DNA of 63,433 nucleotides, filler included, from Psammoneis japonica (GCA_008632985.1; 3 parts of 3 records of this genome joined end to end with filler, not necessarily neighbours in it), one strand, 5' to 3'; shown: positions 263 to 63,433, numbered from the whole stretch's first letter. Made by a program: numbers and translations. Notes: generated from the letters alone by a model not told the origin.

Positions 263-1426
263 TCGTCTGTTGTCGCCCGATGTGGGGTGTGCGCAGTCAA
301 TGAGATTTCCTGTGGCAACTGCACAAGCAGTAGACCGCATTGAGCATGGTCTGTGAAAACATTTCTTTGACATGCAGCTGTCCAAGCAACAAAACACAAA
401 CAGCAAAGAAGATGAGCTCATGACAAGTGCACCACGCCATTTTGCTTTGCCAAAATGATGGATGCGACCACCAAGCCAAAACTCGTGTTTGAGCAACTGG
501 CAGCTGTGACAATGCAGGACCCCTTTCACACGTTGTCACTTGAGACATGTTTGACACCGGAGGGCACAATTGCCAGGGAACATTCATGCTGAGAGATGCC
601 ATTGCTGAACCACCTGATGGCAAACACAAAGAAAAAAGATGAAGGTGTGAGTGTGAGCAGGGAATTTTCTCTGTCGCCCACAGCCCACAGTGCTGCTGAT
701 CTTTGCTCACCATCACAAATGAAGTGCATGTCACAAATGGGAAAGGAAGCATTGGGTTGAGGTGCCACACTGCTCCACTTTGGACACACAGATGTCTGAG
801 GTGCTGTCAATGCATTGCTTTTCTCTTCTTCTTCTGTCTGGCTGGGAGGAGCTGCTGGATGGCCGGCCTTGTCGTCTGTTGTCGCCCAATGTGGGGTGTG
901 CTCAGTCAATGAGATTTCCTGTGGCAACTGCACAAGCAGCAGACCGCATTGAGCATGGTCTGTGAAAACATTTCTTTGACATGCAGCTGTCCAAGCAACA
1001 AACCACAAACAGCAAAGAAGATGAGCTCATGACAAGTGCACCACGCCATCTTGCTTTGCCAAAATGATGGATGCGACCACCAAGCCAAAACTCGTGTTTG
1101 AGCAACTGGCAGCTGTGACAATGCAGGACCCCTTTCACACGTTGTCACTTGAGACATGTTTGACACCGGAGGGCACAATTGCCAGGGAACATTCATGCTG
1201 AGAGATGCCATTGCTGAACCACCTGATGGCAAACACAAAGAAAAAAGATGAAGGTGTGAGTGTGAGCAGGGAATTTTCTCTGTTGCCCACAGCCCACAGT
1301 GCTGCTGATCTTTGCTCACCATCACAAATGAAGTGCATGTCACAAATGGGAAAGGAAGCATTGGGTTGAGGTGCCACACTGCTCCACTTTGGACACACAG
1401 ATGTCTGAGGTGCTGTCAATGCATTG
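263..1426 (+). repeat. Tandem duplication with a 609-bp period (263-817 vs 872-1426)
   Basis: Near-identical sequence. ORFs 297..770 and 906..1379 differ by one residue. Confidence 0.95.
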
Positions 1427-3258
1427 TGCTGTTGTGTGACGTTTTGGCGATCGAACCGCTTTCTGCTGCTCCAGCACAGAAATTCTCACAAGTGCAGCAC
1501 ATCATGACAGGCAGAAGCACCAGTGTGATCCATGGGTTGTCATTTGTGCATGCACCAAGTGTGCAAACTTGTGTGCAGACAACAACAGACAATTTGTGCA
1601 CCTCTGTTGACAGTGGCAGAGATGCCACGATGCAGATTGCGCGCTGCGCGCCCCTTTGACCCCAGTGACCAGACTGCTGTTTGACCCTCAAGCAGGCTGT
1701 CACTTCACATGGAGCATGGGAATGAGCCCATGGAGTTGTGGCAACAAAGAGAAAAAAAGTCTGATTGTGCAAGCAGGCCAGCATGCCAGACTCTTGCTTG
1801 GCAAGGAGCCAGCCGGCGAGCACCTGGGTTGGCAGTGGACCTGAGACAGACTTGCCAGCAACTCACTTGCCTCAAGATGTCCAAATCTTTCAGGTGCATC
1901 ACTCTGTGCTGGTGCTGCAGGACCTGCCAGATCTCACAGTGACCCCACTAAAAGCAGGCACCCAGCAAATTTTGCTGCAGCAGGCTTGAACACCCCTGTC
2001 ATGGAGGCACGTTCCTGGGACAACAGTTGCTTCAATGATGCATGAGATTTCAGCTGGAGCCAGATGCCTCAGGGCTGCTGCAGTGCAAACCTCCAGATGT
2101 GTTGATGAGGTGCTGCCAAGCAGCACACCACAAGCAAGACTTGCCACCAGTGGCACACAACACAGCTCCTTGCTGCCCAATGATTTGCTCAAAGGCACAA
2201 ATGATCCCTGCATGATGGGGTGCATTGCCAAAGAGAGGCGCCAGCTGTGCAACAAGCACTCAGTGTCCAGATGCATCAGACAAGTCAGGATTTTGCTGCA
2301 AAACAAGCATTGCCAGCACCCAAGCACTGCTCTTGTCTCAGCGGCAAATGATGTTGCCATCTCCCTGTTTGCTGTTTGCCAGCCAAGCAAACGTTGCCTG
2401 CCAGCACCAGGCTTGTGTGCTGCAGGCAACTTTGGTTGGAGCTGGCACAGTGCCCGCCACTCTTGCCACTTGCACATGAGCAGTTCTGTGCTTGATTTGT
2501 TGTTTGGGAGCTGGAGAATGTTGAGCCAGGAGACCCTCAGCTCCAGCACTCCTGGGTTTGACAAACCCAGTTGACCACATGGAAATGAGGATTGGCTCCA
2601 TCAACAAGAAAACAGATGGCCCCACCAGCACCAGTGCCCAACTTGACAACAGCACTCATCAATGATGCTCTTCATGAACAGAAGAATGGCCAGGCCCACA
2701 TCTTTCCACTCTGCTGCTTTCAGATGTGCTGCACGTCCAAGTGCAGCAACACCACACTTTGCAGGTCTCAGGGTTGATGACAATGAGCACTGAGACCAGC
2801 CTCAGCTTGCAACCCAGAGGCACCATGCCATCACCAAATCCCAGCCCCTGCCAGGAGGAAGAGTCCAAAAGCCAGATGGAGAGCATCCAAGGTCCTGCAG
2901 CCTCATCAGAAAAAGAACTGCTGTGTCAAATCTGTGAGGGTGTGAAGACCACCAGCTGTGTCCAAAAGAAAAGGACACAGAGATTGCTGTGCAGCTGGTG
3001 CAAAGCCAACTGGAAACACAGTGGGAGACCAGCATGGACAGATGGGCTGCTCTGCTGAGATGCCAACACCCCTTTTCCATGTGTCCTGCCAAAGCATCAT
3101 CCTTTGTGCCAGCACCAGCCCAAAAGTGCTTCTGCACAGTCCTGCCACACCATCATGAGCCACCACACAGACCAACTGGCAGAGATCATTGGAGGCAACA
3201 TTGACCAGCTTGACCACACAGATTTAACTGCACTTCTCTGCCATCATCTCACCAGGTC
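263..3258 (+). mobile_element. Highly degenerate DIRS/Ngaro-like (tyrosine-recombinase) retroelement fragment covering the RNase H to YR region
   Basis: Remnant motifs in broken frames: EPMELWQQREKKSD..ACQTLAW (RNase H-like), MGCIAKERRQLCNKHSVS..IRQV (YR N-terminal-like), HEQKNG, and LSLQPRGTM (resembles HSLRxGGAM). Nearly free of TA and CG. A second copy lies at 17716-20157. Confidence 0.5.
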
Positions 3259-3627
3259 ATCCAACGGCCTTGAGCTGGTCAGTTGCGGGATTTGAGAATG
3301 GCCATCTTTTGCCAGCTCCTGTCGGAGTTCGAGCAGCAGCTGTTGAAAAGTCAAGTTTTTGTTGTTGCGTTTGTACAAAACATTGAGAAGAGCACTTGTG
3401 CAAGCTCCACCCGCACGCCCTGCTGCATCAGGAAGTTTGCCCGTCACGTTTGATGCGTCCGCGCTTGTTTGTTCGGCATGACAGCCAGAAATCATTCGCA
3501 CTTCTGCTGGAATCAATTCTGCTGCTTGACGATCAAAGCCAGACAGTGGTGATGATGATGATTGTAAAGAAGGAGCAACATTGTTGCTGCTGCTTTCTCG
3601 GTTGCGGCGGCGGTTCAAGAGACGCAT
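3259..3627 (-). pseudogene. Metacaspase p10 domain at the N-terminus (type III arrangement), truncated by the repeat at 3258
   Basis: IPAEVRMISGCHAEQTSAD..LPDAAGRAGGACTSALL..SQIPQLTSSRPLD. No p20 domain follows. Confidence 0.8.
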
Positions 3628-4249
3628 CGCGTTTGTTTCATTGTTGCCATGGCAAATTTTTCTGCGAAAGATTTTTCAGCGAGATCTTGGAACAACGGCT
3701 GCCGTCATTTCTCCCTCCACTGTGTGATCAATTGGTTCCTCCTCTTTTAGGTGGAACTCTCTAGATCGAAGTCTGAAACCGAAAGATTTTGGATTGCCGC
3801 CCTCGCTGCCATCAGAAAACAGAGCCATGACGATTGCCTGCACCAATCATTTTGCTGCATTTTGCGCCGGGCGTTCGAATTAATTGTGACACATGACGGT
3901 TATTTCGGTGCGCACTTTTGCGCGACCCACGCGACATGACTAACATGCGTTAGTGCGTGGTGCTGGTTGTTTTGCTTCTGACCGTTCTGTCTTCTGTGAG
4001 GTTTCATGAGGCTGTCTGTGCATGTTGATGTTGTCCAGTTGTGCATGTTGATGTTGTCCAAGGCAAGCTGCGTTGGATTAAGTGAATGTGGAAATGTACG
4101 AAATTTACGCATTGTTGCAGTTTCTTTGCCAAACAGTCAGTCCTCATTTGTGGCCACACTCCATCCGCGGCGGCTCAAGTGAAAGTCCATGTGTGTGCAT
4201 TTTGCGCATTGATGTGGTTGTCTTTGCTGAACAGTTGTTTGTAATTTGC

Positions 4250-4720
4250 TCAATTCCATTCTTTCTGGCCATGCTTCTTCTGAAGGGACTTTGCTTGCTC
4301 CTTCTCCTGCTCCGCCATCTCCTCCTTGGTGAAAAATCTCCCCGACCACTGTGGAATCGCCGCTGCATGTGCTGCCTTTAGCTCCTCCATGGTTGAATCA
4401 TCCTTGGGCGCGACTGTTGTTTCCACATGATGACTGTCCGCTGTCGTGTTGTCTTGCAAAAGTGCAGAAGTGACATCAAAATTTCCCGAAGTGGGGTCAA
4501 ACGCCGCTCTTGCTTCTTCCAAGGTAATCTCCTCTTCGTCTTCCTTGTTCATCAATGACTGAAGAAGTTCCGCACGTGTCTGCACCTTTTTCTTGTCCTC
4601 ACCAGTTTTCTTTGGCTCGTCTGCCTTCTTTGTTTGTTGCTGCAAATCCATGTTTTCTCTGTTGCTGCGTTTTCTGTGACGGTTGCGTTTGCGTTTCTTG
4701 GTTTGTTGGTTAAAATCCAT
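4250..4720 (-). CDS. Hypothetical charged protein, probably part of the Helitron-like element
   Basis: 156-aa ORF rich in K/E, with no Tyr, in TA-depleted sequence directly downstream of the Rep-helicase. Confidence 0.35.
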   Translation of the reverse strand: MDFNQQTKKRKRNRHRKRSNRENMDLQQQTKKADEPKKTGEDKKKVQTRAELLQSLMNKEDEEEITLEEARAAFDPTSGNFDVTSALLQDNTTADSHHVETTVAPKDDSTMEELKAAHAAAIPQWSGRFFTKEEMAEQEKEQAKSLQKKHGQKEWN

Positions 4721-4866
4721 TCGACGTTGTGTGACGCATGTGTAGATTTCTGCGCAATGTGCTGATCTAATCGAAACATTTCATTTTACGAAATTTCCGC
4801 ATTTTTACGGTTGGGGTCGCTGGGTGGTTGTGCAGTGGTTGAGCATCCCAATCTAATGTTTGCGCG

Positions 4867-7800
4867 CTACATTGACATTTCTGCGCACTGTTGCTGAGAA
4901 AAACACGTGGCGCTTCTCTCCTTCATGAGTCTTGTCAAGGCTTCGCAGCCTTCTGGGACCTTGCATTTTCGCAGGTCCTTGCCCAGTGGCTTTCGCATGA
5001 ACAGCCCTTCTCTGGTCTTTGCTCTGGAGAGCACAACATGCACCCAATTCTGAGTGTAGCTCCAAGAGTGTACAAACAACTGCGGGACTCCACTCCCTTG
5101 CAGTTTGTGCCCTGCAGTGGCATTGTTGATGACAAACGGCAGCTGGGTTGCCTTCAGTTGGAAAGTGTGCCTTTGTTTGTCGCCTTCTTCTAAAATTAGG
5201 CTGGGCTTGGCGATGCAAGCCCTGAAAGCACTTGTTTTTGGCTCAACTAAAAACTTCGCGGGGTCGATGCTTTTGTTGCAGTGTTCCAGTGCAACGTGGT
5301 CTACCTGACTGGCAAGTGCAGCAGGAGTGCTGATGTTGTTGTCTAAAGTCACTGGTCTTGGTTCCTGTCCTGGTTTGAGAACGACCTTGTCAACAGTGGC
5401 TTGCGTTCCGTTTGCTTGACCGTTTGCTGCATTTTCGTTGAAAGGTGTCATGACTCTGCATCTTCTGTAAATTCGCAAGACTGGATCCATTCTTCCTGAT
5501 TGCATGATGACGTGTCCTTCACCACAGTTGTTCCAGAAGCTGTTGCAAACCGGAAATGGTTGGTGGAGTCTCGTGCCATTCTGCACCTGCAAGTCGTCAC
5601 TGAAAATCAACATTGAGTCAAGGACGTCTCCATCTCTTCCATGCAGTGTTTCTGCTCTTTTTTTGAACAGGCCAGTGTCAATTGCATCTCTGTCCTTATT
5701 TGCGCATGCAGCACAGCAGAGGTCACTGGGCAGATCATCTTTGTTCTGAACCACTCATTCGTTGATGTGCTCTGTGTCGTCAACTGCAATCTCACCAGTG
5801 CGGAATCTCTCAAGCAGTTTTCCCCATGATGGATCGTCTTTAAACCTGTGTACACCACGAAGTTCTGTGTGGCAGTTGATCCACTCGTGAAACTCGGGAC
5901 ATGCATCTTTGCATGGTGGCTTCACTCCTTTTCCGACTGGTTCTAGTTGCCTGAGGTCACCTGCGAAAACAATGTTCATGCCACCGTGCGGCTTGCTCAA
6001 TTCGCTCTTCAACACTGTCAAATTCTCATGGAGTTTTTCTAGTTCTCTCTTGCTTGCAAAAGAAATCTCGTCTGCCACCAAAAGTCTCGTGTCTGACCAT
6101 GCTTCAATTTGCTCTTCGGCCATTTGCTTTCTTCTCATGAGGTGTGCAACTCGGTGGATTGTGTCCCCTTTGAGAACAGTTGCAGCCACTCCGGTCAGTG
6201 CAGTCACTCTGATTGTGCTTGTTGTGAACGGCTGCTCAACAAGCAAGCAATGCTCTCTTCCGCATTCCACGACGAGGTCCATTGTGGTTGATTTGCCACT
6301 TCCACCTGCACCATGTAAAAAACACACAAGTTGCAACGTTCTGCGTCTTTGCACTTCCACGAGTTTCTTCAATCGGCGAAGGTTTGTTGCGAATTCGTGT
6401 CTGCTGTTTCTCCTGTTGAGTCCATTGCGTGACATCTCGTCTTGAAGAGCGTCTTGACAGCAAGTGAGCACAAAGGTTCCTGCTAGAATTTCAAAGGCAC
6501 GCTGCTGTTGCCCATCCAGTCTTGCTTTCCCAGCCCAGTCTATGACACTTGCTGCAGATCCGTTTGCTTGACGCACATCGACGTGTTCTTCCAAACCTGT
6601 CATGTCCTCAAACGACCTTCTTGTTCTTTGCGTTCTAGTCAGTGTCACTCGAACAACATCGTCTCTTGACAGTGGTCTGCTGTGGATGTGTTGTTGCACA
6701 CCTTCATTCTGGTCTTCCTCGTCGGTGTCATCGCTGCCCTCTAGATTCTCAAAAAGTTGTCGTTCATCAACCTGGTTTTCCTCGTTTGGTGGGTCAGTGT
6801 GCATGTCTGCCAAGCATTTGCAGCCACCCATGTGTGAACCTTTCTGTCTTGCACGTTTGCCGCTCAAATGCGCAGGAACAACTGCTTGGTTGCTCAACCC
6901 AATGTCATCGTCTTCTGGCTTCTCTGCCATTTCTTCCAAGAGTGCATCCAGCAGTTGACCCTGAACGGCGCCTGAAAGACCTTCTTCCTCGTCACTTTCG
7001 CAACAGTCAAACGCAACGTCAGCAGGTCTAAATTGCTCCGTCTTTCTTTGCAGATCGTCAGATGTGCTTTTGAGACGAAGGCAGTTGGACTTGGCCTCCT
7101 GTGGGTTCTGCAAGAAGTTCAAGTTTTCCTCTGCAATGACACCGGCCACTGCGGAGAGTTGGAATTCACGCAGGTGTGTGTGGGTTGTTGGTTTGAGTTC
7201 CGTCATTGTTCTGTGAGGCGCAAACAAGGCCAATGCCAACTTGCAGTGCAATTCTTTGTCCAGTGTTGTTGGTTGCTGTGGATCTACAAGGCAACCACCA
7301 AACTTGGCTGCATCAGGAAAATCACACTGAAGTGCTTTTGACAATCGCGGCTGCTGTTGCTGTCTGACACCTTGAAGAAACTTGTTCTTCGTTGAATTGT
7401 AAGACGGGTGCCTGTGCGCTCTGTTGTCGAACATCATCATGCCGTGTTCGTTTTTCCTTGTGTTGCGAAGAACTTCGCATTCACTGAAAAACGCAAACGG
7501 GCTGAGATTCTCCAGTGCTGTTGGACGACACAGGCAGTGCAAGGCCTGGCATTGGAAGAACGGTGCATCGCCAAAATGGGCTGCAGTTGCAGACACTTCG
7601 TCTCTTTCTAGTGTGCTGACAATGTCTTTCAAGGGGCACCATGCGGTCAAATGAGATTCGATGAAACGGCTTCCGTTCCTTGTCATGCAAGATGCAAGTG
7701 GTGGTCCAATGACGTTCGTCTTGTTGTGCAAGCAAGCACCCCATGTGAGACGTCTGATTGCTTCCGATGCATCAGATGTGTGTTTCCGTAATTCCGTCGC

Positions 7801-10518
7801 TGTCCTGTTTGCAGTTCAAAGCACTTCGTCGTACGATGCAGTGTCATCTTTCTGGGTGTCTTTTAGGATGTGCCCAATTGTGTGTTGAGCAGACGGTCCA
7901 GGCATCAATGAAGCAATGTTTGTGTTGCATGTCAGTTTTGATCTGCTCATTGCAGGGCACGACACGTTTTGAAAAGCATTGCACTTTCTCCTCTTTGGAA
8001 CAACTTCCTTCATGCACCGACACGCAAAAGTTCCATCCCAGCTGAACCACTTTATCTGAGTGTCATCTGCGTTCCTTGCCAAATTGTTTGGACACGAAGC
8101 AGCTGGTTGCCTGTGACGGCAGTCACCTGGTTTGAGCTCCTCTCGTTTCCTTTTCCTTGACTGCATGTCCAGTTCCTCGTGTGGGGTTTTTTTGTGCATT
8201 TTACGTAACTCTGCGCATTTGGGAAAACACGACTTCGTAACGTGCATGTGATGGTTGTAAGCTGTGTCCGGCACATGTGCCTCCATTGTCCCTTGCGGAC
8301 CACTTCGCTGGTGTTGTGCACACATTGCTTTTAGTCGCTTTGCATGGCCATCTGGATGGCAAGTCAGGCCAGGTGCACGGTGCCGTGACTGTAAAAAGCT
8401 TTCTACAAACTCGACGTTTGTCCAGTGCTTGGTGCAGTGACGACAACAAGCAAACATTCCATTCTTCGACTGCTGGCCGTCTTCATGCCTCAGGTTTCTT
8501 AGCTGTTGGTCGTCTGCCACTTTTGGAGAGGTGCGACACATTTTTGGCACTGCACAGTCATGATCGAATGCTTCGCGCAACGCGCTGGTGCTGAAGTCCT
8601 CGCCACAGATTAATTCCATGCTGCAGATCTTCTGAACTGTGTTGGCAAGGTGCTCAGCACCTTGGCGTCGGATCTGTCTTGTTGGCGAATGCAGTTTCTC
8701 TCTTGCATTGTTGATCGATGCGAACCAGATCTGCATGTGTCCGTGTGCTGTTGGACGTCCCTGCTCCTCAACTGCAGCTAAAAATGCGGCTGGCCTGCCA
8801 ATGTAGAAGTTAAAGTTTTCTCTTGGTTGGTCAGCACTCAGATCCCAACCCATTGCCTCTTCTGTTGCAATGTCAAACAAGCACTCGAGTGCAAAGGCTG
8901 TTAGACCGGGAAACTTTGGACGCAGTTCATTACGTTGCTCAGCCCTGCTAGCAAGAATTTCGTCCGTCAGTTGTGTCACGTCTTCGTTTGGGTCCAGGAT
9001 GACACCCGAGCACAGTTGTGCAAGAAACGAACTTGCATCGTCCGGACTGACGGTTAAGAAAATGCCACCCTGACCAAAATGATGCTGACAAGTTTTGGCG
9101 TTTCTCCTCATTTTCTTTGCTGCTTCGTTGCTGTGTGGCAGAGACGCAGATGCAACGTTGAGTGCGCGCAAAAAGTGGTGCCCGAGTCCACAATCTCTTC
9201 TCTCGCCCAAGTTGCGATCATGAACAGTTCCATCCACATCGTCCACTGTTGGTTCGTTTGCAAACTGTGCAGCCTGATTCTTGTCCCTGACTTTCCACCC
9301 TGCGCTCTGTGGCATCCTTTGCTTCATTGTCAAGTTGCAGCATGTTAACACGAAGAGCTGCTCATGGAAGTGAGGCTGGGAAATCCGTGCCAAGTGGTCG
9401 GCACAGTGTGCAAGGTTGGTGCCATCTGCAAGACTTCCGTCTTTCTTCATTCTCGTCTCATTGATTCCTCCTCTGCCAAAAGGAAACTGCAGCAGACACG
9501 CGTCAATGAAGTTGTTGCCTTTGAAATCACTCGCAGATTCTTTGGACAACTGTGCTTGTGCCTCTAAATCAAATCCGTTGGCAGTGGCTTCGTGCACAAG
9601 ATCTTTGAAGCAGCCCAGGTTGCGCTGACCACCGGTCGCAGGAGACATGGTTCCATCAGGAAAGCAAACATGAAATGACTCTGAGGTCTCAACATTCGCA
9701 TTTTCTCCTTCTTCTTCGCCGGTGCCATCGACAAGTGCGGGACTCCGCAGATTGCGCCTGACTTCGTCTAGATTTGTCTGTTGGCACACCCACTCTTGGT
9801 CATGGTGCAACAGCCATTCCATCGCCCTTGGCATGTGGTGCGTCCCAATTCTGTTCTTTGAACGTGCAAGTTGTCTTTGCTCTGGAGTCATCTTTCCAGT
9901 CATCAGTGCAATCACATTCTGATGTAAATTCAGCACGTCGAAGTGCACAACAGTTCTTATGATGCTTTGCATCTTGACTTTGCAGTGTGTCATGCTTCCC
10001 TCAAGCTTCTTCTGTTTGCCGCCAAGGTGGCTGAAGCAGCACCCGCATGTTTTCACTGGTGTGAGCATTGCCAATTCTGCTTCAGTCAGAGACAACAGTT
10101 CGTGCGGCGGGGCACTGAAACAGCAGTTGTTCGCCATCGCGCACATTGGCACAACGGCTCTTCCCAGGCTTCTTCGGCATTCGCTGCAGCAAGTGAATCC
10201 ATCGACGCATCGTCTGTCTTCCTGCACCACGCATTGGGCGTGGGGAGAAAGCAGCAGGTCTTTGATCCAATCAGCATCTTCATGCTCTGCAGTGCAGCAG
10301 GACTTGAGACGATCAGATGCGCTGTTCCAGTCTGAAGGGGTGAGCAAGTTTCTTGCTGATTCCAATGTTTCGAGTGGCAAGTGGCAAACTTCTCTGGGTT
10401 TCAGCAGAACGTCACAGACCAAACATGCGTGTGGTCTAAATTCTCCGTCTCTGTGTAGATGAAGCATCTCAAACTTTCTGTTGATTGCATTGCAAACACG
10501 GGAGTTGGCCTCGTCCAT
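4867..10518 (-). pseudogene. Helitron-type Rep (HUH)-Pif1 helicase, about 1880 codons in one frame with two in-frame TGA stops (7816-7818, 5755-5757)
   Basis: Rep motifs GIFLTVSPDD, VEEQGRPTAHGH (HUH) and QHTIGHILK (Y-x3-Y motif mutated). Helicase motifs GAGGSGKS, ALTGVAA..GDTIH, DEISF, FAGDLRQLEPV, HKLQG and HVVLSRA. The three ORF-track pieces are contiguous and in frame. Confidence 0.92.
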
Positions 10519-10610
10519 TTTAATTTAAGCTGATGCTTTGACTCAACAAATTTCAAGAAGCCACTCAGCAAAAACAGTTGTTTTTTCAGTGCGATCACCG
10601 TGAAGCTGCG

Positions 10611-12963: not shown

Positions 12964-13054
12964 GTTTTTTTTTTTTTTTTTGCCGGTGTGGTGTAAATTT
13001 GCAAATGTTTGGCAAACTGAGTGTTGACTGCAACTCAGCTTTTCCTCTGTCTCT

Positions 13055-28041: not shown

Positions 28042-28090
<49 letters not shown>

Positions 28091-52436: not shown

Positions 52437-53120
52437 GTTTTCCTTGAAAACACATGTTTGTTTTCCTTGAAACGACATGTTTGTTGTCCTTGAAAAGACA
52501 TTTTTTTTTCCCCTTGAAACAACATGTTTGTTTTCCTTGAAACGACATGTTTGTTTTCCTTGAAAAGACATGTTTGTTTTCCTTGAAACAACATGTTTGT
52601 TTTCCTTGAAACAACATGTTTGTTTGCATTGAAAAGGCATGTTTGTTTTCCCTGAAAAGACATGTTTGTTTTCCTTGAAACGACACGATTGTTTTTCTTG
52701 AAATGACACATTTGTTTTCCTTGAAAAGACATGTTTGTTTTCCTTGAAAAGACATGTTTGTTTTCCTTGAAACCACATGTTTGTTTTCTTTGAAATGACA
52801 AGTTTGTTTTCCTTGAAAAGACATGTTTGTTTTCCTTGAAATGACACGTTTGTTTTCCTTGAAAAGACATGTTTGTTTTCCTTGAAACGAAATGTTTGTT
52901 TTCCTTGAAAATGCACGCTTGTTTTCCTTGAAACGACACTTGTTTTCCCAGAAAAGACATGGTTGTTTTCATTGAAACCACATGTTTGTTTTCCTTGAAA
53001 TGCCACATTTGTTTTCCTTGAAAAGACATTTTTTTCCCTTGAAGCGACGTGTTTGTTTTCCTTGAAACGACATGTTTGTTTTCCTTGAAAAGACATGTTT
53101 GTTTTCAAGACATGTTTGTT
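52437..53120 (+). repeat. 23-bp satellite array, consensus ACATGTTTGTTTTCCTTGAAA(NN)
   Basis: Directly visible. Translations repeat every 23 aa (3 x 23 bp). Shorter patches occur at 51316-51425 and 51813-51890. Confidence 0.95.
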
Positions 53121-53864
53121 TGACCTTGACATTGAAGTCTTCTCTGCAGACAAGCCCAAGTCCCGCTCTGGCACTCAACTCACCTTGCGCGTGCAAAAGC
53201 ACCCTGATTTTCAAGTCAGGGAAAACAACAGAGTGCGCGCTGTTGGGGTCAAACTGGCGAGGGGTGTCGTGGACAGTCAGCTCACTTGCTCACAGTTGGC
53301 TGGGGCACAGCAGGGTGTCAGTCATTCTTTCCCTGAAAAACACAGCCTCGTGGGCTGGCAGTGGGCGTGGCTGTCCATTGGCTGGATCAACCCACATGGC
53401 AGCAGCCACGCAAATGGGGAGATTCCTCATTGGCGCGCGCTCTTCGGAGCAAGGATGCACTGCAGCAGCGTGGTTGCTGACAACAATTTGTTCAATGTTG
53501 CGGAGAAAAATGGAGTGGCTGGCTGTCTCAACATGACCCAAATGACAGCTGCACTGTCGAACAGCAGTGCTCCTCTCATTGTTGCTGGCCTGTTCCAGCT
53601 CCAGGTGCTCTGCTTTTCATCACTCGAGAGGCCGATTTTCTGTGCAGTTTGGCGCATTGACTCCTTCAATTTTGATCATTTCGAAAATCGAAAGGTGAGT
53701 GTACACCCGAAAATGCATGTGAAGTGCACACTCACCCTTTGATTTGGCAAAAAACGGATTTGGAAAAAGTCAATTGCGCCAAATGCACAAATTTCCAAAT
53801 GATGGGAATCGAACCCGCGCGGAGCACCTGGAGCTGGAACAGGCCTGCTGTGAAAAGATCAAGA

Positions 53865-55064
53865 TGTCGTCTCCAGCACCACCGGCAAAGAAGAGAAAGA
53901 AAAATGAGACTGTTGAGCCAATGAGCCTGAGACTTCAGGCAGTGTTGAAGAGAATGGGCACGCAGGCAGCGCACGGTGCGCTGAACCAGAAGTGGAGAAG
54001 GTGGCTGGAAATGATCTCTTTCACAGGTGAAGTTTCTCAGTCCATCAGAATTGGCAAGCAATGGGAGCGTCTCAATGTTTGTCAAGAAACAGATTGCTGG
54101 TGGCAACATGGACACTTCAAATTGGTCAGGAACTTGGGAGAAATGGGCAAAAGAGGCGGCAAAAAGGCAAGTTGACAATCTCAGAAACACGGTGTGTTCG
54201 GCTGTTGGGGCGGAGGCAATGGCCCGCAAGTTGGGTGACCAATGTGTGTGACTCGAGAGTTGCGCGCATCTCGCAAGAAGATGACGGTGATGCTTTGTCT
54301 GTGCAGGCGTTGTTGCCAAGGAAGAGGGAAAGGAAAAAGAAAAGAAACTCAAGGCGGCAGTCAAGAGGAAAAAGCAAGGCAGGAAAAAGTCAAGCCGTGA
54401 CAAGAACGAAAAGAAAGACATCCCGATTGTGCCAACATGGGATCCGCTTGGCCCAGACACTGTCGCTGGCAGCAAACGAAGGAACAAGCAGGCGCGCAAG
54501 TGGTTCTGTGATCACACCCCTGTTTGCAAAAATTGACAAACCAAGGATTGTGCGGCAATGCAATCATGGATTGGCACATGGCAACAAGGTGGAGGCAGAA
54601 ATGGCGATGTGGGCACAGTGAAAAATGGTGCACATGATTCTCAACAAGTTGTCGCGACATTGGCACAGCAAACTTGCAACCAGAGGTTGGCCTGTCATTG
54701 TGCGACAACATTTTTTTGCAACATTTTGACAAATTGTCATCATGCAAATCCACACATTTTAACGTTTCGTGCACTCTGATGCGTGTGTTGTGCACAGCAT
54801 CATTGCACAGCATTTGTCCAACTCTCCCTCTCATCGCAGGATGGGTTGTCGCCATGTGGTGCATCTGCACAGCGGACTTGCGAATTTGACCATGCACTCC
54901 CTCTGTCAGGCAGGATGGGTTGGTGCCATGTGGCGCATCCGGCCAAGGGAGGAGTGGGTTCGAAGCCCAGCCGCCCACCCCGGATGGGGTTGGAAAGGGG
55001 CAGGCCGAGAAAGAAAAGGAGGCTTGGATTTGAGGCCGATTCGAGCCAGCGACCTCAGGAAGCG
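53865..55064 (+). repeat. Complex repeat with an inverted copy at 62231-63433; contains a decayed ORF of unknown type
   Basis: ORF 54061..54621(+) mirrors 62676..63218(-). A ~410-bp sub-unit is tandem at 54781 and 55193 and recurs at about 59685. Confidence 0.9.
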
Positions 55065-55646
55065 CAAAGACTCACAACCACTCAGAATGCTGCACACTGC
55101 CCTGGCGAGTGCAGGAGGTTCTCAACAACCCAACAGGCAAAGAAGTTGCCACTCGGCTGGCTGTTGAGTCCCTTCTCCGCGCACACATTTGGGCGTGTGT
55201 TGTGCGCAGCATCGTCACACAGCATTTGTCCAACTCTCCCTCTCGTCGCAGGATGGGTTGTCACCATGTGGCGCATCCGCACGGAGGACTCACGAATTTG
55301 GCCATGCACTCCCCATGTTGGGCAGGATGGGCCAGCGCCATGTGGCGCATCCGGCCAAGAGAGGAGTGGGCTCGAAGCCCAGCCGCCCACCCTGGATGGG
55401 GTTGAAAAGGGGCGGGCTGAGAAAGAAAAGGAGGCTTGGATTTGAGGCCGATTCAAGCCAGCGACCTCAGGAAGTGCAAAGACTCACAACCACTCAGAAC
55501 ACTGCACACTGTCCTGGCGAGTGCAGGAGGTTCTCAACAACCCAGCAAAGAAGTTGCCACTCGGCCAGCTGTTGAGCCCCTTCTCTGCACACACATTCAG
55601 GCATGTGTTGTGCACAGCATTGTCACACAGCACTTGTCCAACTGAA

Positions 55647-58376
55647 CATGTCCTTTCAAGGAAAACAAACATGTTTTCCTTGAAAAGACATGTTTGTTTT
55701 CTCTAAAAAGACATGTTTGTTTTCCTTGAAATGACACGTTTGTTTTCCTTGAAACAACATGTTTGCTTTCCTTGAAATGACACATTTGTTTTCCTTGAAA
55801 CGACATGTTTGTTTTTCTTCAAATGACATGTTTGTTTTCCTTGAAACCACATGTTCGTTTTCCTTGAAACGACACGTTTGTTTTCCTTGAAAAGACATGT
55901 TTGTTTTCCTTGAAATGACATGTTTGTTTTTCTTTAAAAGACATGTTTGTTTTCCTTGAAACCACATGTTCGTTTTCCTTGAAATGACACTGTTTGTTTT
56001 CCTTGAAAAGACATGTTTGTTTTCTCTGAAACCACATGTTTGTTTTCCCTGAAACGACACATTTGTTTTCCTTGAAAAGACATGTTTGTTTTCCTTGAAA
56101 AAACATGTTTGTTTGCCTTGAAAAGACATGTTTGTTTTCCTTGAAACGACATGTTTGTTTTCCCTGAAACAACATGTTTGGTTTCTTTGAAACCACATGT
56201 TTGTTTTTCTTGAAAACGCATGTTTCATTTCCTTGAAATGACATGTTTGTTTTCCTTGAAACGACATGTTTGTTTTCCTTGAAAAGACATGTTTGTTTTC
56301 CTTGAAAAGACACGTTTGTTTTCCTTGAAAAGACATGTTTGTTTTCACGTTTGTTTTCCTTGAAAAGACACGTTTGTTTTCCTTGAAAAGACATGTTTGT
56401 TTTCCGTGAAACGACATGTTTGTTTTCCTTGAAACGACATGTTTGTTTTCCCTGAAACGACATGTTTGGTTTCTTTGAAACTACATGTTTGTTTTTCTTG
56501 AAAACACATGTTTGTTTTTCTTGAAACGACATGTTTTTTTTCGTTGAAAAGACATGTTTGTTTTCCTTAGAAACACACATTTGTTTTCCTTGAAAAGACA
56601 TGTTTGTTTTCCTTGAGACGACATGTTTGTTTTCTTTGAAAAGACATGTTTGTTTTCCTTGAAATGACTTGTTTGTTTTCCCTGAAACGACATGTTTGTT
56701 TTCCTTGAAACCACATGTTTGTTTTCCTTGAAAACACATGTTTGTTTTCCTTGAAATGACATGTTTGTTTTCCTTGAAAAGACATGTTTGTTTTCCTTGA
56801 AACCACATGTTTGTTTTCCTTGAAAACACATGTTTGTTTTCCTTGAAAAGACATGTTTGTTTTCTTTGAAACAACATGTTTGTTTTTCTTGAAAAAACAT
56901 GTTTGTTTTCCGTGAAACGAAATGTTTGTTTTCCTTGAAACGACATGCTTGTTTTCCTTGAAATGACATGTTTGCTTTCCTTGAAAAGACACCTTTGTTT
57001 TCTTTGAAAACACATGTTTGTTTTCCTTGAAACGACATGTTTGTTTTCCTTGAAATGACATGTTTGCTTTCTTTGAAAAGACACCTTTGTTTTCCTTGAA
57101 AACACATGTTTGTTTTCCTTGAAACCACGTGTTTGTTTTCCTTGAAATGACATGTTTGTTTTCCCTGAAACGACATGTTTGTTTTCCTTGAAACCACATG
57201 TTTGTTTTCCTTGAAAACACATGTTTGTTTTCCATGAAACGACATGTTTGTTTTCCTTGAAACAACACGTTTGTTTTCCTTGAAAACACATGCTTGTTTT
57301 CCTTAAAACGACATGTTTGTTTTCCTTGAAAAAACATGTTTGTTTTCCTTGAAACAACACATTTGTTTTCCATGAAACGACATGTTTGTTTTCCTTGAAA
57401 CCACGTGTTTGTTTTCCTTGAAAACACGTGTTTGTTTTCCTTGAAACGACATGTTTGTTTTCCTTGAAATGACATGTTTGTTTTCCTTGAAAAGACACAT
57501 TTGTTTTCTTTGAAACGAAACGTTTGTTTTCCTTGAAACGGCATGTTTGTTTTCCTTGAAAAGACATGTTTGTTTTCAAGACATGTTTGTTTTCCTTGAA
57601 ACAACATGTTTGTTTTCCTTGAAAAGACATGTTTGTTTTCCATGAAACGACATGTTTGTTTTCCTTGAAACCACGTGTTTGTTTTCCTTGAAAACACATG
57701 TTTGTTTTCCTTGAAACGACATGTTTGTTTTCCTTGAAATGACGTGTTTGTTTTCATTGAAAAGACATGTTTGTTTTCCTTGAAAAGACACACTTGTTTT
57801 CTTTGAAACGAAATGTTTGTTTTCCTTGAAACGGCATGTTTGTTTTCCTTGAAAAGACATGTTTGTTTTCAAGACATGTTTGTTTTCCTTGAAACAACAT
57901 GTTTGTTTTCCTTGAAAAGACATGTTTGTTTTCCTTGAAATGACATGTTTGTTTTCTTTGAAAAGAAATGTTTGTTTTCTTTGAAAAGACATGTTTGTTT
58001 TCCTTGAAACCACATGTTTGTTTTCCTTGAAACCACATGTTTGTTTTCCTTGAAACAACACGTTTGTTTTCCTTGAAGAGATGTGTTTGTTTTCTTTGAA
58101 ATGACATGTTTGTTTTTCTTGAAAATGCACATTTGTTTTCCTTGAAAAGACATGATTGTTTTCCCTGAAACCACATGTTTGTTTTCCCTGAAATGACACA
58201 TTTGTTTTCCTTGAAAAGACACGTTTGTTTTCTTTGAAAAACCATGTTTGTTTTCCTTGAAAAGACATGTTTTTTTCTTGAAAAGACATGTTTGTTTTCC
58301 CTGAAACAACATGTTTGTTTTCCTTGAAACCACGTGTTTGTTTTCTTTGAAAACACATGTTTGTTTTCCTTGAAAC
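55647..58376 (+). repeat. Main 23-bp satellite array (over 110 units)
   Basis: Directly visible. Confidence 0.97.
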
Positions 58377-59580
58377 TGACCAAACACTGCCATGACAGCT
58401 GAGAATTGGGTGCAAGACAAGACAGAGATCGTTGGACAGCATCAACAGGTTCTAGAATTGTGGGATGTTGTGCTGCTGGGGCCGCTGATTTAGCAACAGT
58501 GAACCAATCGCCAATGGCGCACAAACTGCCTGTGTTCGTGACAGCACATCAGCACTCATTCAGCCCCCTTGAACTGACGCTGGCTCCGCTTGGGTCAGAT
58601 TGACAGACAAATGCAACCTGATGCTGCCCCACTCCAGGGCAGCAGCCACATTTTGGGGGTGGGAAGTGCCGCACCTGCGCGGCAAACCCGTTTGGTTTGT
58701 CCCCTTTTGGGGCTCACCACAGGACGTGACTTGTGATTTCCCGGAGCTTCGGTCCAGGCAACAACTTGGTCAGTGCATCTGCCAGATTCGTGCGCCCGTC
58801 TTCCCAAGCAATGCGTGCTGTTCCAGCGGCTTGTGCCTCGCGAGTCCTGTGACAGGCGGCTGCATTGTGCTTCTTCTTCAAAGTGGACTCCGGTTTAGTT
58901 GAGTTCTTGAAGACAGCTTCATTGTCGCAGAAAACATCAGTGGCCCCATCCATGGGGATTCTGAGCATCCAAAGCTTGCAGCGCAAGGCTTCGATTTGCT
59001 CCACTGCAGTCTTCACAGCCACGAACTCCAACCCAAAAGCAGAGGACTCTGTGGCATTCTGCCGCTTGGAGCAATGCAAGATGGGTGCTCATTGGACAAA
59101 TGTCAGGATCCCAGTGTGGGACCTGCGCGTCACATGGCATCCGGCGTGATCAGCGTCGACAAAGCAAGCAGTGGTCACGCTGTTCCCGCGTGCCTCTGGC
59201 ACATTTGGCTGCATTGGCTCAGCCATGCCAGGGTGACATTCTTCCCAATCACACTTGGCAAAGCGACTCTCATCAAAGACGGGCTCAGTGTCGTCGAACA
59301 CTGGCGCAGACTCAGAGCGAGCCTTCAAGCATGCAAAGATGTGGAGCACCTCGCCCAGGTGTCCAACTCATGGTGCCGCCAAGCAGGAGGACATGAGGGG
59401 TGGACGTCCAGATTGTTCCGTTCATGTGGCCGGTCTCCCCCAATGTCATTGTGAGAGACACTGGCCTGATCAGCCAAGCAGCGATGCAGCCGGACTTTGA
59501 CGGTCCTTGGCACACACTGACGCATGCGCGCTCTTCCTCATTTTGCACCATGGCATCAGCAGAAAGTTCCCATCCAAGGG
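58377..59580 (-). mobile_element. 3' fragment of a second Copia family (end of RT, RNase H, PPT, 186-bp LTR) embedded in the satellite
   Basis: CFVDADHAG..RRSHTG, SKRQN, FCDNEAV, KKKHN and NLADALTK. PPT CAAGGGGGC, then LTR TGAATG...TGGTCA at 58562->58377. Confidence 0.9.
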
Positions 59581-60029
59581 ATGTTTGTTTTCCTTGAAAT
59601 GACATGTTTGTTTTCATTGAAACCATGTGCTTGTTTTCCTTGAAATGCAAATCCACACATTTTTGACATTTCGTGCACTCTGATGCGTGTGTTGTGCACA
59701 GCATCATCACACAGCATTTGTCCAACTCTCCCTCTCATCGCAGGATGGGTTGTCTCCATGTGGCGCATCTGCACAGCGGACTTGCAAATTTGACCATGCA
59801 CTCCCTCTGTCAGGCAGGATGGATTGGTGCCATGTGGCGCATCCGGCCAAGGGAGGAGTGGGTTTGAAGCCCAGCCGCCCACCCCGGATGGGGTTGGAAA
59901 GGGGCAGGACGAGAAAGAAAAGGAGGCTTCGATTTTAGGCCAATTCAAGCCAGCAACCTCAGGAAGCACAGCACACATTCAGGCATGTGTTGTGCACAGC
60001 ATCGTCGCACAGCATTTGTCCAGCTGAAC

Positions 60030-62165
60030 ATGTCTTTTCAAGGAAAACAAACATGTTTTCCTTGAAAAGACATGTTTGTTTTCCTTGAAAAGACATGTTT
60101 GTTTTCCTTGAAACCACATGCTTGTTTTCCTTGAAACCACATGTTTGTTTTCCTTGAAAAGACATGTTTGTTTTCCTTGAAAAGACACGTTTGTTTTCCT
60201 TGAAACCACATGTTTGTTTTCCTTGAAACGACATGTTTGTTTTCCTTGAAACGACATGTTTGTTCTCCTTGAAAAGACATGTTTGTTTTCAAGACATGCC
60301 TGTTTTCCTTGAAATGACATGTTTGTTTTCATTGAAAAGACACGCCTGTTTTCCCTGAAAAGACATGTTTGTTTTCCTTGAAACAACACGTTTGTTTTCT
60401 TTGAAACAACATGTTTGTTTTCCTTGAAACCACTTGTTTGTTTTCCTTGAAACGACATGCTTGTTTTCCATGAAACGACATGTTTGTTTTCATTGAAACG
60501 ACATGTTTGTTTTCCTTGAAACGACACGCAAACATGTTTTTTCAAAGAAAACAAACATGTCTTTTCAAGGAAAACAAATGTGTCATTTCAGGGAAAACAA
60601 ACATGTGGTTTCAGGGAAAACAACCATGTCTTTTCAAGGAAAACAAACGTGCATTTTCAAGAAAAACAAACGTGTCATTTCAAAGAAAACAAACATGTCT
60701 CTTCAAGGAAAACAAATGTGTCGTTTCAAGGAAAACAAACATGTGGTTTCAAGGAAAACAAACATGTCTTTTCAAAGAAAACAAACATTTCTTTTCAAAG
60801 AAAACAAACATGTCATTTCAAGGAAAACAAACATGTCTTTTCAAGGAAAAACAAACATGTCTTTTCAAGGAAAACAAACATGTCGTTTCAAGGAAAACAA
60901 ATGTGTCTTTTCAAGGAAAACAAACATGTCTTTTCAAGGAAAACAAACACGCCGTTTCAAGGAAAACAAACGTTTCGTTTCAAAGAAAACAAATGTGTCT
61001 TTTCAAGGAAAACAAACATGTCTTTTCAATGAAAACAAACACGTCATTTCAAGGATGACAAACATGTCGTTTCAAGGAAAACAAACATGTGTTTTCAAGG
61101 AAAACAAACACGTGGTTTCAAGGAAAACAAACATGTTGTTTCATGGAAAACAAACGTGTTGTTTCAAGGAAAACAAAACATGTCATTTTAAGGAAAACAA
61201 GCATGTGTTTTCAAGGAAAACAAACGTGTTGTTTCAATTAAAACAAACATGTTGTTTCATGGAAAACAAACATGTCATTTCAAGGAAAAAAAACATGTCT
61301 TTTCAAGAAAAACAAACACGTGGTTTCAAGGAAAACAAACGTGTGTTTTTAAGGAAAACAAAGGTGTCTTTTCAAGGAAAGCAAACATGTCATTTCAAGG
61401 AAAACAAACATGTTGTTTCAAGGAAAACAAACATGTGTTTTCAAGAAAAACAAACATGTGATTTCAAGGAAAACAAACATGTCGTTTCACGGAAAACAAG
61501 CATGTCTTTTCAATGAAAACGAGCGTGTCTTTTCAAGAAAAACAAACGTGTCCTTTCAAGGAAAACAAATGTGTCGTTTCAGGGAAAACAAACATGTGGT
61601 TTCACAGAAAACAAACATGTTTTTTCAAGAAAAACAAACATGTCTTTTCAAGAAAAACAAACATGTTGTTTCAAAGAAAACAAACATGTCTTTTCAAGGA
61701 AAACAATCATGTGGTTTCAAGGAAAACAAACATGTGGTTTCAAGGAAAACAAACATGTCTTTTCAAGGAAAACAAACATGTCGTTTCAAGGAAAACAAAC
61801 ATGTGTTTTCAAGAAAAACAAACACGTCGTTTCACGGAAAACAAACATGTCTTTTCAAGAAAAACAAACATGTCTTTTCAAGGAAAACAAACATGTCTTT
61901 TCAAGGAAAACAAACGTGTCATTTCAGGGAAAACAAACATGTGGTTTCAAGGAAAACAAACATGTCTTTTCAAAGAAAACAAACATGTCTTTTCAAGAAA
62001 AACAAACACGTTGTTTCAAAGAAAACAAACATGTCTTTTCAAGGAAAACAAACGTGTCATTTCAAGGAAAACAAACATGTGGTTTCAAGGAAAACAAACA
62101 TGTGGTTTCAAGGAAAACAAGCGTGTCTTTTCAAGGAAAACAAACATGTCTTTTCAAGGAAAACT
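60030..62165. repeat. 23-bp satellite array with an orientation switch at about 60527
   Basis: Units read ...TTTTCCTTGAAA up to about 60525, then TTTCAAGGAAAA... afterwards. Confidence 0.95.
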
Positions 62166-63433
62166 GTCATGTTCAGTTGGACAAATGCTGTGCAACGATG
62201 CTGTTCACAACACATGCCTGAATGTGTGCTGCACTTCCTGAGGTTGCTGGCTTGAATTGGCCTCAAATCGAAGCCTCCTTTTCTTTCTTGGCCTGCCCCT
62301 TTCCAACCCCATCCGGGGTGGGCGGCTGGGCTTCGAACCCACTCCTCCCTTGGCCGGATGCGCCACATGGCACCAACCCATCCTGCCTGACAGAGGGAGT
62401 GCATGGTCAAATTTGCAAGTCCGCTGTGCAGATGTGCCACATGGCGGCAACCCATCCTGCGATGAGAGGGAGAGTTGGACAAATGCTGTGTGATGATGCT
62501 GTGCACAACACACGCATCAGAGTGCAAAAAATGTTAAAAATGTGTGGATTTGCATGATGACAATTTGTCAAAATGTTGCAAAAAATTGTTGTTGCACAAT
62601 GACAGGCCAACCTCTGGTTGCAAGTTTGCTGCGCCAATGTCACGACAACTTGTTGAGAATCATGTGCGCCATTTTTCACTGTGTCCACATCGCCGTTTCT
62701 GCCTCCACCTTGTTGCCATGTGCCAATCCATGGTTGCATTGCCGCACAATCCTTGGTTTGTCAATTTTTGCAAACAGGGGTGTGATCACAGAACCACTTG
62801 CACGCCTGCTTGTTCCTTCGTTTGCTGCCGGCGACAGTGTCTGGGCCAAGCAGATCCCATGTCGGCACAATCGGGATGTCTTTCTTTTCATTCTTGTCCC
62901 GGCTTGACTTTTTCCTGCCTTGCTTTTTCCTCTTGACTGCCGCCTTGAGTTTCTTTTCTTTTTCCTTTCCCTCTTCCTTGGTGACAACGCCTGCACAGAC
63001 AAAGCATCACCGTCATCTTCTTGTGAGATGCGCGCAACTCTTGAGTCACACACATTGGTCACCCAACTCATGGGCCATTGCCTCCGCCCCAACAGCCGAG
63101 CACACCGTGTTTCTGAGATTGTCAACTTGCCTTTTTGCCGCCTTTTTTGCCCATTCCTCTCAAGTTCCTGACCAATTTGAAGTGTCCATGTTGCCACCAG
63201 CAATCTGTTTCTTGACAAACATTGAGACGCTCCCGTTGCTTGCCAATTCTGACGGACTGAGAAACTTCACCTGTGGAAAGAGATCATTTCCAGCCACCTT
63301 CTCCACTTCTGGTTTCAGCGCACCATGCACTGCCTGCGTGCCCGTTCTCTTCAACACTGCCTGAAGTCTCGGGCTCATTGGCTCAACAGTCTCATTTTTT
63401 CTTCTCTTCTTTGCAGCGGTGCTGGAGACGACA

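Follow-up and report, generated by a model that had tools for sequence, protein, structure and literature searches.

Footprint of a probable TpA-directed transition process in transposable elements and satellite DNA of the diatom Psammoneis japonica

The closest described counterpart of the mutational footprint treated here, which affects a Helitron unit, a Copia retrotransposon, a 23-bp satellite and unannotated repeats in a 63,433-nucleotide stretch of the diatom Psammoneis japonica (GCA_008632985.1; this whole stretch is called the window below), is known from the chlorarachniophyte Bigelowiella natans. In mutation accumulation lines of this alga, 231 of 302 nuclear mutations fell in integrated nucleocytoplasmic large DNA virus (NCLDV) and virophage sequences; in these hypermutable regions, all mutations but one (230 of 231) were A>G or T>C and lay on TpA, and the rate was about 1000 times the background, in only some of the lines (Mettrop et al., bioRxiv 10.64898/2026.01.13.699255). 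The B. natans genome carries 124 clusters that are depleted in TpA and enriched in CpA and TpG, and its 324 TpA-poor coding sequences (CDS) are enriched for reverse transcriptase (RT) and DDE domains; an ADAT2-like DNA adenine deaminase was proposed by the authors (bioRxiv 10.64898/2026.01.13.699255). Their main text makes no mention of diatoms, and a term search of that text finds none of the words 'context', 'flanking' or 'trinucleotide' (bioRxiv 10.64898/2026.01.13.699255).

Several other processes degrade mobile DNA by transitions or leave comparable products. Fungal repeat-induced point mutation (RIP), a process requiring duplication and also the sexual cycle, by way of RID and DIM-2, resembles the present case in that dinucleotide-specific and near-saturating transitions degrade mobile or repeated DNA, leave neighbouring genes intact and differ in outcome between copies. 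It runs in the other direction: RIP converts CpA to TpA and gains TA and AT, whereas here TpA becomes CpA or TpG, TA is lost and GC is gained. APOBEC3, acting on minus-strand cDNA, and ADAR, acting on double-stranded RNA (dsRNA), also inactivate mobile elements by context-specific transitions, and a 5' U/T preference is ADAR-like; these enzymes attack replication intermediates with a bias towards one strand, whereas here the two outcomes are equal and a DNA transposon, a satellite and post-integration events are involved. CpG decay yields TG and CA, as here, and both processes feed the same CA/TG pool, but it is unable to remove TA; it fits 10 of the 33 differences between Helitron copies that are detailed below. 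Enzymes of the TadA/ADAT2 type convert A to I, which is read as G; in the natural substrate, the target A carries a U on its immediate 5' side, and engineered or variant TadA forms act on DNA. They offer a mechanistic analogy only, none such being encoded in the window.

The window joins three independent contigs (1-25868, 25969-51215 and 51316-63433) by artificial spacers (N...TTAATTAATTAA...N), and the second contig has an internal gap at 32629-32786. Over the whole window, the observed/expected ratio (O/E) is 0.22 for TA, 1.48 for CA, 1.46 for TG and 0.72 for CG. When pooled, the repeats hold 229 TA among 45,368 dinucleotides (0.50%) and the host sequence 599 among 16,301 (3.67%; odds ratio of host versus repeats 7.5, Fisher p 1.9e-169), as expected from an earlier interpretation of this DNA (the sequence-only reading), according to which the repeats are TA-poor and the adjoining host genes are not. 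TA depletion in the repeats is near saturation, and a TpA-directed process changing A:T to G:C very probably acted on their DNA. The effect is local, the repeats standing at TA O/E 0.01-0.24 beside a host baseline of 0.49-0.56 on the same contigs, with borders that are sharp to about 100 bp on a map of 100-bp resolution. CA and TG are raised about equally in every repeat block. GC content is 50-55% in repeat blocks against 46-48% in host blocks, apart from the satellite arrays (33%) and three smaller blocks (48-49%). The features are the following, the three host blocks having a CG O/E of about 0.9-1.0.

263-3258, no strand: element A, copy 1, defined by composition and repeat structure; TA O/E 0.02, CG O/E 0.19, CA and TG O/E 1.8-2.1.
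3259-17712, minus strand: high-copy Helitron unit of about 14.4 kb, defined by Pfam, tblastn and word depth; TA O/E 0.15-0.20 (0.15 in the open reading frame (ORF) block 4867-10518, 0.16-0.20 in the remainder), CG O/E 0.68-0.90.
17713-25868, no strand: element A, copy 2 (the longer one), defined by composition and repeats; TA O/E 0.03, CG O/E 0.17.
25969-29570, no strand: host-like control block left of the Copia element; TA O/E 0.53.
29598-29782, plus strand: Copia 5' long terminal repeat (LTR), free of TA depletion; 13 TA in 185 bp.
29960-36165, plus strand: TA-depleted Copia interior, defined by RVT_2, tblastn and a fine TA map; about 50 TA in 6.2 kb, CG O/E about 1.0 (Copia including its LTRs: TA O/E 0.24, CG O/E 1.00).
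36231-36413, plus strand: Copia 3' LTR, free of TA depletion; 16 TA in 183 bp.
36414-45000, no strand: host control block with phosphoenolpyruvate (PEP) synthase, GPI2-like and CPDase-like ORFs; TA O/E 0.56.
45300-46900, no strand: island of 1.6 kb, without annotation and poor in both TA and CG, surrounded by host DNA and directly upstream of the PEP synthase gene (segment 45001-47100: TA O/E 0.14, CG O/E 0.41).
47101-51215, no strand: host control block with an EF-hand protein and an arrestin-like ORF; TA O/E 0.49.
51316-63433, no strand: contig 3, TA-poor throughout, with satellite arrays and a Copia pol fragment; TA O/E 0.01-0.05, even at 33% GC, CG O/E 0.53-0.70.
52437-53106, 55672-58375, 60054-60526 and 60529-62164: 23-bp satellite arrays, the last one inverted.

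A sequencing or assembly artefact, for example base-calling errors at modified bases, could in principle produce a composition of this kind, since modified bases can give systematic miscalls on some platforms, and the sequence was found in one sample only. It is extremely improbable in view of the confinement of the changes to repeats with sharp borders against normal host DNA on the same contigs. Independent Logan contigs also reproduce positions 20309-23299 with 0 differences in the four listed pieces, copies differ in outcome at the same site, and the protein-level changes obey codon logic. CpG decay, recognised by CG loss with TG/CA gain, is seen in element A (CG O/E 0.17-0.19) and in the island (0.41) and is absent from the Copia interior (1.0). 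Since the Copia interior has lost its TA at a CG O/E of 1.0, the TA process is separable from the decay of methylated CpG.

The loss of TA is reflected in the encoded proteins. The Rep-helicase of the Helitron reads through at 10497-4876 on the minus strand in three ORF pieces; it contains Helitron_like_N, DUF6570 and PIF1 in Pfam scans and aligns by tblastn with amino acids (aa) 11-1903 of the full-length homologue P0127 at 41.7% identity. The Copia gag-pol lies at 31842-36063 on the plus strand, supported by Pfam RVT_2 and tblastn. Exactly 50 TA are present in the 5,652-bp block 4867-10518, where a hand tally in the sequence-only reading had given about 50. The Tyr counts of that reading are likewise recovered: the three ORF pieces of the Helitron contain 6 Tyr over a total of 1,853 aa, the Copia pol contains a single one over 975 aa, and so does the ORF upstream of it over 518 aa. 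The seven motifs that it had quoted are all in the Copia pol, where they face the predicted consensus residue of 60 homologues: YVDD (the RT active-site motif) has become CVDD, ALYGLKS has become ALCGLKS, ITYSSVV has become ITCSSVV, NAYLNA has become NAHLNA, RDSVRL has become RDSARL, QNTVES has become QNTAES and DDIL has become DDIP. Among columns occupied by Tyr in at least 70% of these 60 homologues, 23 are covered by the Copia pol, which keeps Tyr at 1 and has Cys at 11, His at 10 and Phe at 1. By leave-one-out control, 59 of the 60 homologues retain at least 86% of the conserved Tyr. The Helitron keeps Tyr at 4 of 15 such columns and has Cys at 6, His at 4 and Phe at 1. Homologues have Tyr contents of 2.6-4.6%, except for the partly mutated P0035 (1.7%).

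Replacements at conserved columns were traced back by one nucleotide step (codon-path test). Among 106 Copia replacements, A>G after T accounts for 19.2 and T>C before A for 19.0, while no other transition context exceeds 4.0; the same set includes 29 multi-step changes and 19.3 transversions. The corresponding values among 65 Helitron replacements are 14.5 and 9.0, with 7.0 for CpG>CpA. In other words, A>G is preceded by T in 19.2 of 25.2 cases in Copia and in 14.5 of 15.5 in Helitron, and T>C is followed by A in 19 of 21 and 9 of 10, respectively. The unmutated relative L001, used as a negative control, shows 2.0 TA-type changes among 30 single-step ones and retains 19 of 20 conserved Tyr.

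These contexts bear on one of the three candidate mechanisms that the sequence-only reading had put forward, a Pol-eta-like WA>WG process (the others being DNA adenine deamination and thymine oxidation). In such a scheme, targeting and outcome would be the same, but error-prone synthesis would put G opposite T when silent chromatin is patch-repaired or replicated, as a by-product of heterochromatin repair instead of a dedicated defence. Pol eta makes T:dGTP mispairs at WA motifs, and WA includes AA. The change from A:T to G:C, its strand symmetry and its restriction to silent-looking repeat blocks would agree with this scheme, as would the CpG decay seen in some of the same blocks, which suggests methylated and repaired chromatin. 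However, A>G after either A or T is not the pattern found: after A it is rare in both Copia (2.0, against 19.2 after T) and Helitron (1.0, against 14.5), and the fit is poor for this reason. The Copia interior moreover lost TA without losing CpG, and a saturation of at least 95% of the sites is hard to reach by occasional repair patches. This explanation is unlikely.

Nucleotide-level comparisons give the same direction. The outgroups are two metagenomic relatives, L001 and L002, which were the only two loci provided by the metagenome scan and whose DNA has a TA O/E of 0.62 and 0.89. At 104 TA sites of L001, the window has CA at 26, TG at 24 and TA at 4, while the seven other tabulated dinucleotides are retained at 32-45%. 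At 41 TA sites of L002, compared through a codon alignment of tblastn segments, it has TG at 13, CA at 10 and TA at 2. Overall, TA is still present in the window at 4-5% of the outgroup TA sites and is replaced by TG or CA at 48-56%. At the level of these alignments, the direction of change is shown to be from TA to TG or CA, specific to TA and with both products about equal. As TA is self-complementary, a single type of event on either strand yields both products. A directional, TpA-specific and strand-symmetric A:T>G:C process limited to transposable element (TE) and satellite DNA, as had been claimed, is thus what the Tyr, codon-path and outgroup tests agree on.

The same palindromic nature of TA means that all sequence results fit T>C as well as A>G, so that the target could be the T of TpA. 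Thymine modification or oxidation (of the 5-hydroxymethyluracil (5hmU) or base-J type) would then lead to mispairing with G or to repair to C, yielding TA>CA and, through the opposite strand, TA>TG. Dinoflagellates carry 5hmU preferentially at TpA and TpC. Nevertheless, 5hmU pairs normally with A, the window sequence bears no sign of modification, and we know of no thymine hypermodification reported in diatoms, although no literature search was aimed at it. A thymine target appears quite unlikely.

At least part of the process acted on DNA, in line with the sequence-only reading; differences between LTRs, differences between Helitron copies and the involvement of a DNA transposon and a satellite all bear this out. 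The two LTRs of a retrotransposon are identical at integration. Those of the Copia element, the 5' one being followed by a primer-binding site (PBS)-like TTTATCAGAGCC, differ at 4 positions, of which 3 are TA in the 3' LTR against CA, CA and TG in the 5' LTR. Because LTRs start identical, these TA-type differences reflect post-integration change. The Helitron, a DNA transposon, and the 23-bp satellite are as strongly depleted as the retroelement. The satellite arrays contain 8 TA in 5,492 bp at 33% GC. Across 231 satellite units, transversions that create TA amount to 0.6 per possible change, compared with 7.0 for those of other kinds, and at one position pair TG is found in 182 units, CG in 25, CA in 15 and TA in none.

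Copies of the Helitron unit were compared by means of Logan contigs from two runs of one sample, over 3300-23299 and at 90% identity or more. The summed word depth is 1,671-5,286 over 3300-17973 against about 31 over 21309-23299, and this ratio implies that the 14.4-kb unit is repeated roughly 100-fold. Differences among its copies comprise 220 transitions and 13 transversions. The 40 sites listed (of 234) correspond to 33 events: in 8 the window has CA or TG where TA occurs elsewhere, CG is involved in 10, adjacent TG<->CA swaps account for 7 and changes of other kinds for 8. A TG<->CA swap would be the expected trace of a single ancestral TA or CG whose strands had been hit independently. 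At least some of the changes arose in the chromosome, once the DNA had been integrated or copied.

ADAR-like A-to-I editing of TE dsRNA, fixed by reverse transcription and re-integration, would have confined the changes to the transcribed strand and to elements with an RNA intermediate. The 5' U/T preference does resemble that of ADAR and of fungal mRNA editing (bioRxiv 10.64898/2026.01.13.699255), and a mutated Copia interior between intact LTRs could mirror the overlap of sense and antisense transcripts. Neither confinement was found, however: the Helitron and the satellite are equally affected, A>G and T>C are equal on the sense strand (11 Cys, 10 His), and the LTRs differ by TA-type changes that are necessarily post-integration. 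ADAR, in addition, accepts an A before its target and favours G on the 3' side, whereas here few A>G changes follow an A and the best-surviving sites are those with a 3' purine, all of which makes RNA editing very unlikely.

The contrast between LTRs and interior informs on the targeting of the TpA-directed process. Since integration, the LTRs have lost at most 3 of their approximately 32 TA, whereas the interior has lost at least 95%; TA also persist in the flanks adjoining the LTRs (7 in 177 bp and 3 in 65 bp). Either targeting of the interior was stronger by a factor of at least 10, or the interior had already been mutated in ancestral elements, in which the LTRs were likewise spared. In both cases, a targeting signal limited to the interior is suggested. 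It may correspond to homology or small RNA common to family members, in which coding regions, and not LTRs, are conserved. The claim that all repeats are depleted holds for the Helitron, the Copia interior and the satellite, but the spared Copia LTRs were not predicted by so simple a rule. Short LTRs within a long repeat would not escape RIP, and RIP-type C>T changes at CpA with a gain of TpA were not found. With regard to duplication dependence of the RIP type, the high-copy Helitron is depleted, but so is element A at about 31x per copy, and the LTRs are spared. Between the 5' LTR/PBS and the homologue-matched start of gag-pol at 31842, the ORF 30195-31751 (plus strand, 518 aa, no Pfam family) shares the TA depletion of the interior and encodes 1 Tyr, 16 Cys and 16 His.

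The survival of TA depends on the flanking bases. Expressed as the density of remaining TA in repeats relative to host for each tetranucleotide class, it is 0 for ATAT (0 in repeats against 46 in host), 0.007 for ATAC/GTAT, 0.016 for ATAG/CTAT, 0.064 for ATAA/TTAT, 0.109 for GTAC, 0.156 for CTAC/GTAG, 0.205 for GTAA/TTAC, 0.358 for CTAG, 0.422 for CTAA/TTAG and 0.434 for TTAA. Likewise, ATAN classes make up 41% of TA in unmutated relatives (111 of 268); of the 50 TA that survive in the Copia interior, 4 belong to them. When half-sites are treated as additive, with relative rates of about 5 : 2.5 : 1 according to whether the 3' base is T, C or a purine, 8 of the 10 classes are reproduced within 1.4-fold, ATAC and ATAG being 4-5-fold rarer than the model predicts. 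At the duplex level, R-TA-Y is preferred over Y-TA-R and is lost first.

A number of observations weigh against the interpretation of these data as a TpA-directed attack on repeats, or restrict it. Some concern the flanks. A strand-specific model, in which an A is hit if followed by T, then by C, then by a purine, was rejected, as it gave 19 concordant and 20 discordant cases in a set of 60 outgroup-polarised sites, and Tyr codons show a mere non-significant trend (7 Cys to 2 His after a pyrimidine, 10 to 12 after a purine). The strand-flank test is confounded, since several CATG products may carry a secondary CpG>TpG change in the flank. Because flanks fail to predict the strand hit, the preference is described at the duplex level, without any strand-level motif. 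The LTRs, together with the adjoining 180 bp (approximately) and 65 bp, keep 7-9 TA per 100 bp against about 0.8 in the interior. Other points relate to age. In the codon-path test, each element shows about 19-21 transversions and 10-29 changes of several steps, an indication that the copies are also old, and this window alone would agree with a slow, long-acting bias as well as with a burst. As to scope, the data come from 63 kb on three contigs and the reads of a single sample, and this sample, the only one containing the sequence, may be the assembly's own source.

The remaining points of this kind come from element A. At 90% identity or more, this most depleted of the elements has a depth of about 31x for each copy, rising to about 52-54x in the overlap of its two window copies, and it is more depleted than the Helitron unit with its roughly 100-fold repetition; in view of this low depth, a dependence on repetition is at most putative. 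Segments 815-3258 and 17713-20157 are 99.3% identical over 2.4 kb, and their 17 differences are mostly CG<->TG/CA, one only being TA<->CA. Both 2.4-kb copies are TA-free and have the same TG or CA outcome at each former site, which implies that depletion predates copying. This touches a possibility that the sequence-only reading had itself named as contrary to it, namely that intact, active members of a family have the same TA-poor sequence. Without any mutator, the repeats would be TA-poor by inheritance or by selection, for example to avoid a TA-reading nuclease or UA-cleaving RNases. The two nearly identical copies do imply that TA-free DNA gets copied, and a TA-free element would escape any TA-directed attack. 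On the other hand, conserved and catalytic residues have been lost (YVDD>CVDD; 21 of 23 conserved Tyr replaced by Cys or His in Copia and 10 of 15 in Helitron), which is incompatible with selection on a working element. Homologues have normal Tyr contents (with the exception given above) and DNA with a TA O/E of 0.62-0.89, non-coding satellite and unannotated DNA are equally depleted, and TA is found in other copies where the window has CA or TG. An origin without a mutator is accordingly highly improbable.

Taken together, the favoured explanation is as follows. A mark of TE interiors, which might be silent chromatin, small RNA or the homology between copies, would guide the TpA-directed process to the repeats, where TpA-specific transitions have turned the A:T pairs of 5'-TA-3' into G:C. 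The chemical step would be one in which adenine in DNA is deaminated to hypoxanthine by an enzyme of the nucleic-acid deaminase superfamily. Loss of the A of TpA on either strand accounts for TG and CA being about equally frequent on the reference strand. The process has come close to saturation, has destroyed the proteins of the elements (YVDD to CVDD) and has left almost no target sites in their DNA. The deaminase step, taken alone, is proposed by analogy and is given slightly less than an even chance; general Pfam scans revealed no deaminase domain among the ORFs of the window. The terms 'genome defence' and 'repeat-induced' may prove apt for such a process and are used here in an interpretive sense.

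The present footprint shares its main properties with that of B. natans: A:T>G:C transitions are confined to TpA, TpG and CpA products occur in similar numbers, and mobile DNA is affected while flanking host DNA stands at its baseline. As far as described by Mettrop et al., the two cases have in common the dinucleotide target, both products, the local action, the non-host nature of the affected DNA beside an otherwise normal genome, a long-term footprint of TpA loss and CpA plus TpG gain, and the enrichment of TE domains among TpA-poor CDS. They differ in host, a chlorarachniophyte (Rhizaria) there and a diatom (Stramenopiles) here; in evidence, a measured rate there and a fossil footprint alone here; in depth, a TA O/E of 0.45 in the NCLDV insert against 0-0.2 here; and in targets, viral inserts there and Helitron, Copia, satellite and unannotated repeats here. 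Near-saturation, the involvement of a DNA transposon and a satellite, the R-TA-Y hierarchy and LTR sparing go beyond the text of that report. The statement as a whole, i.e., a TpA-directed process of the same kind as in B. natans and involving adenine deamination, is probable. The sequence-only reading knew of no description in diatoms. Our literature search found a single description, published in 2026 for B. natans, an alga unrelated to diatoms, in which the same signature was measured, and none for diatoms. In the light of this precedent, the present case represents a new lineage of an already described kind, with a deeper footprint and other targets. As a whole, the sequence-only reading is supported in part, its core of directional TpA mutation of repeat DNA being retained.

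Should the footprint in this diatom and the B. natans process be one, a TpA-directed mutator of mobile DNA would be more than the peculiarity of a single alga and would span two lineages of the Stramenopiles-Alveolata-Rhizaria (SAR) group. Diatoms are ecologically dominant and include genetically tractable model species, and three questions could then be put to a direct test: the identity of the enzyme that edits adenine, or thymine, in nuclear DNA, the nature of the mark on its targets and a possible role in defence. A rather unlikely, speculative extension is that diatoms and chlorarachniophytes share an ancient DNA-editing defence, widespread in SAR phytoplankton and a mirror image of RIP. 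In such a defence, an adenine deaminase guided by small RNA or homology would read R-TA-Y in the interiors of mobile elements and satellites, convert it to saturation, spare short unique ends such as LTRs and leave TA-free DNA immune to attack. Whatever the enzyme, hypermutated repeats have practical consequences: long spurious ORFs on both strands lead gene callers to over-predict, TE proteins drop under domain-detection thresholds and repeat families diverge by TG/CA swaps, and in such genomes these effects will mislead gene prediction, TE annotation and TE dating. In the window, the TA-free DNA of 263-25868 and 51316-63433 shows long overlapping ORFs on both strands (e.g., 55819-57699 and 60503-61516), because the TAA and TAG stops were lost with TA.

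Three environmental homologues from ENA metagenome assemblies look partly affected by the same process, judging from their conserved Tyr columns. The Copia homologue P0035 (1.7% Tyr overall) keeps 15 of 24 and has 5 Cys and 2 His, and the Helitron homologues P0174 and P0158 keep 7 of 13 (3 Cys, 1 His) and 6 of 12 (1 Cys, 2 His), respectively. In the Copia pol of the window, 6 of 14 Tyr>His products (34717-35000 and other His codons) lie in the pentamer GCATG. The T of this pentamer may have been produced by a subsequent CpG>TpG change (CAC|G > CAT|G), in which case two decay processes overlap on the same sites and confound flank analyses. A scan of contigs with the Copia pol gave 9 pattern-matching stretches, 0 of which encode a relative, and no RNA run is listed among the runs containing the sequence.

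Element A copy 1 contains an internal tandem duplication of 555 bp (263-817 and 872-1426). The 14.4-kb Helitron unit is bracketed by the two direct 2.4-kb copies of element A; this arrangement may have arisen by insertion with duplication, by recombination or through an assembly join. Within element A, 19975-21308 has a summed word depth of about 630-665x against about 31-54x on either side, with many short 'skip' joints, which suggests an internal short tandem or dispersed repeat. The Helitron unit also carries a metacaspase (Peptidase_C14) fragment (3247-3675, minus strand, E-value 1e-8), which is probably a captured piece of a host gene mutated together with the element, and a weak SET-domain match (16031-16672, minus strand). 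These two are the only Pfam matches in the 93 stop-to-stop ORFs of the unannotated depleted blocks. No Pfam family was assigned to element A, to the island or to contig 3 outside its satellite, and the 'DIRS-like' element of the sequence-only reading is unconfirmed. A second Copia pol fragment was recovered by tblastn at 58717-59397 on the minus strand. Terminal repeats were sought around the island (45.3-46.9 kb), and the matches were short and at chance level. Translations of the 23-bp satellite match LbR_Ice_bind and TSP_Ig-like in Pfam, surely spuriously.

As regards the host blocks, the ORFs of 25969-29570 match no Pfam family. The PEP synthase (pyruvate,water dikinase) gene is on the minus strand, with exons at about 42336-44467; its exon 43706-44467 shares 72% identity with Nitzschia inconspicua and 69% with a Thalassiosira species, and unnamed matches reach 76-77% at best. 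The EF-hand protein (47467-49587, minus strand) has its best named match in Seminavis robusta (32% identity), and a Protein Atlas look-up gives a weak lead of stramenopile type, with Oomycota most frequent. The arrestin-like ORF lies at 50088-51083 on the plus strand. Those homologues of the Copia element that bear names come from Fragilaria crotonensis.

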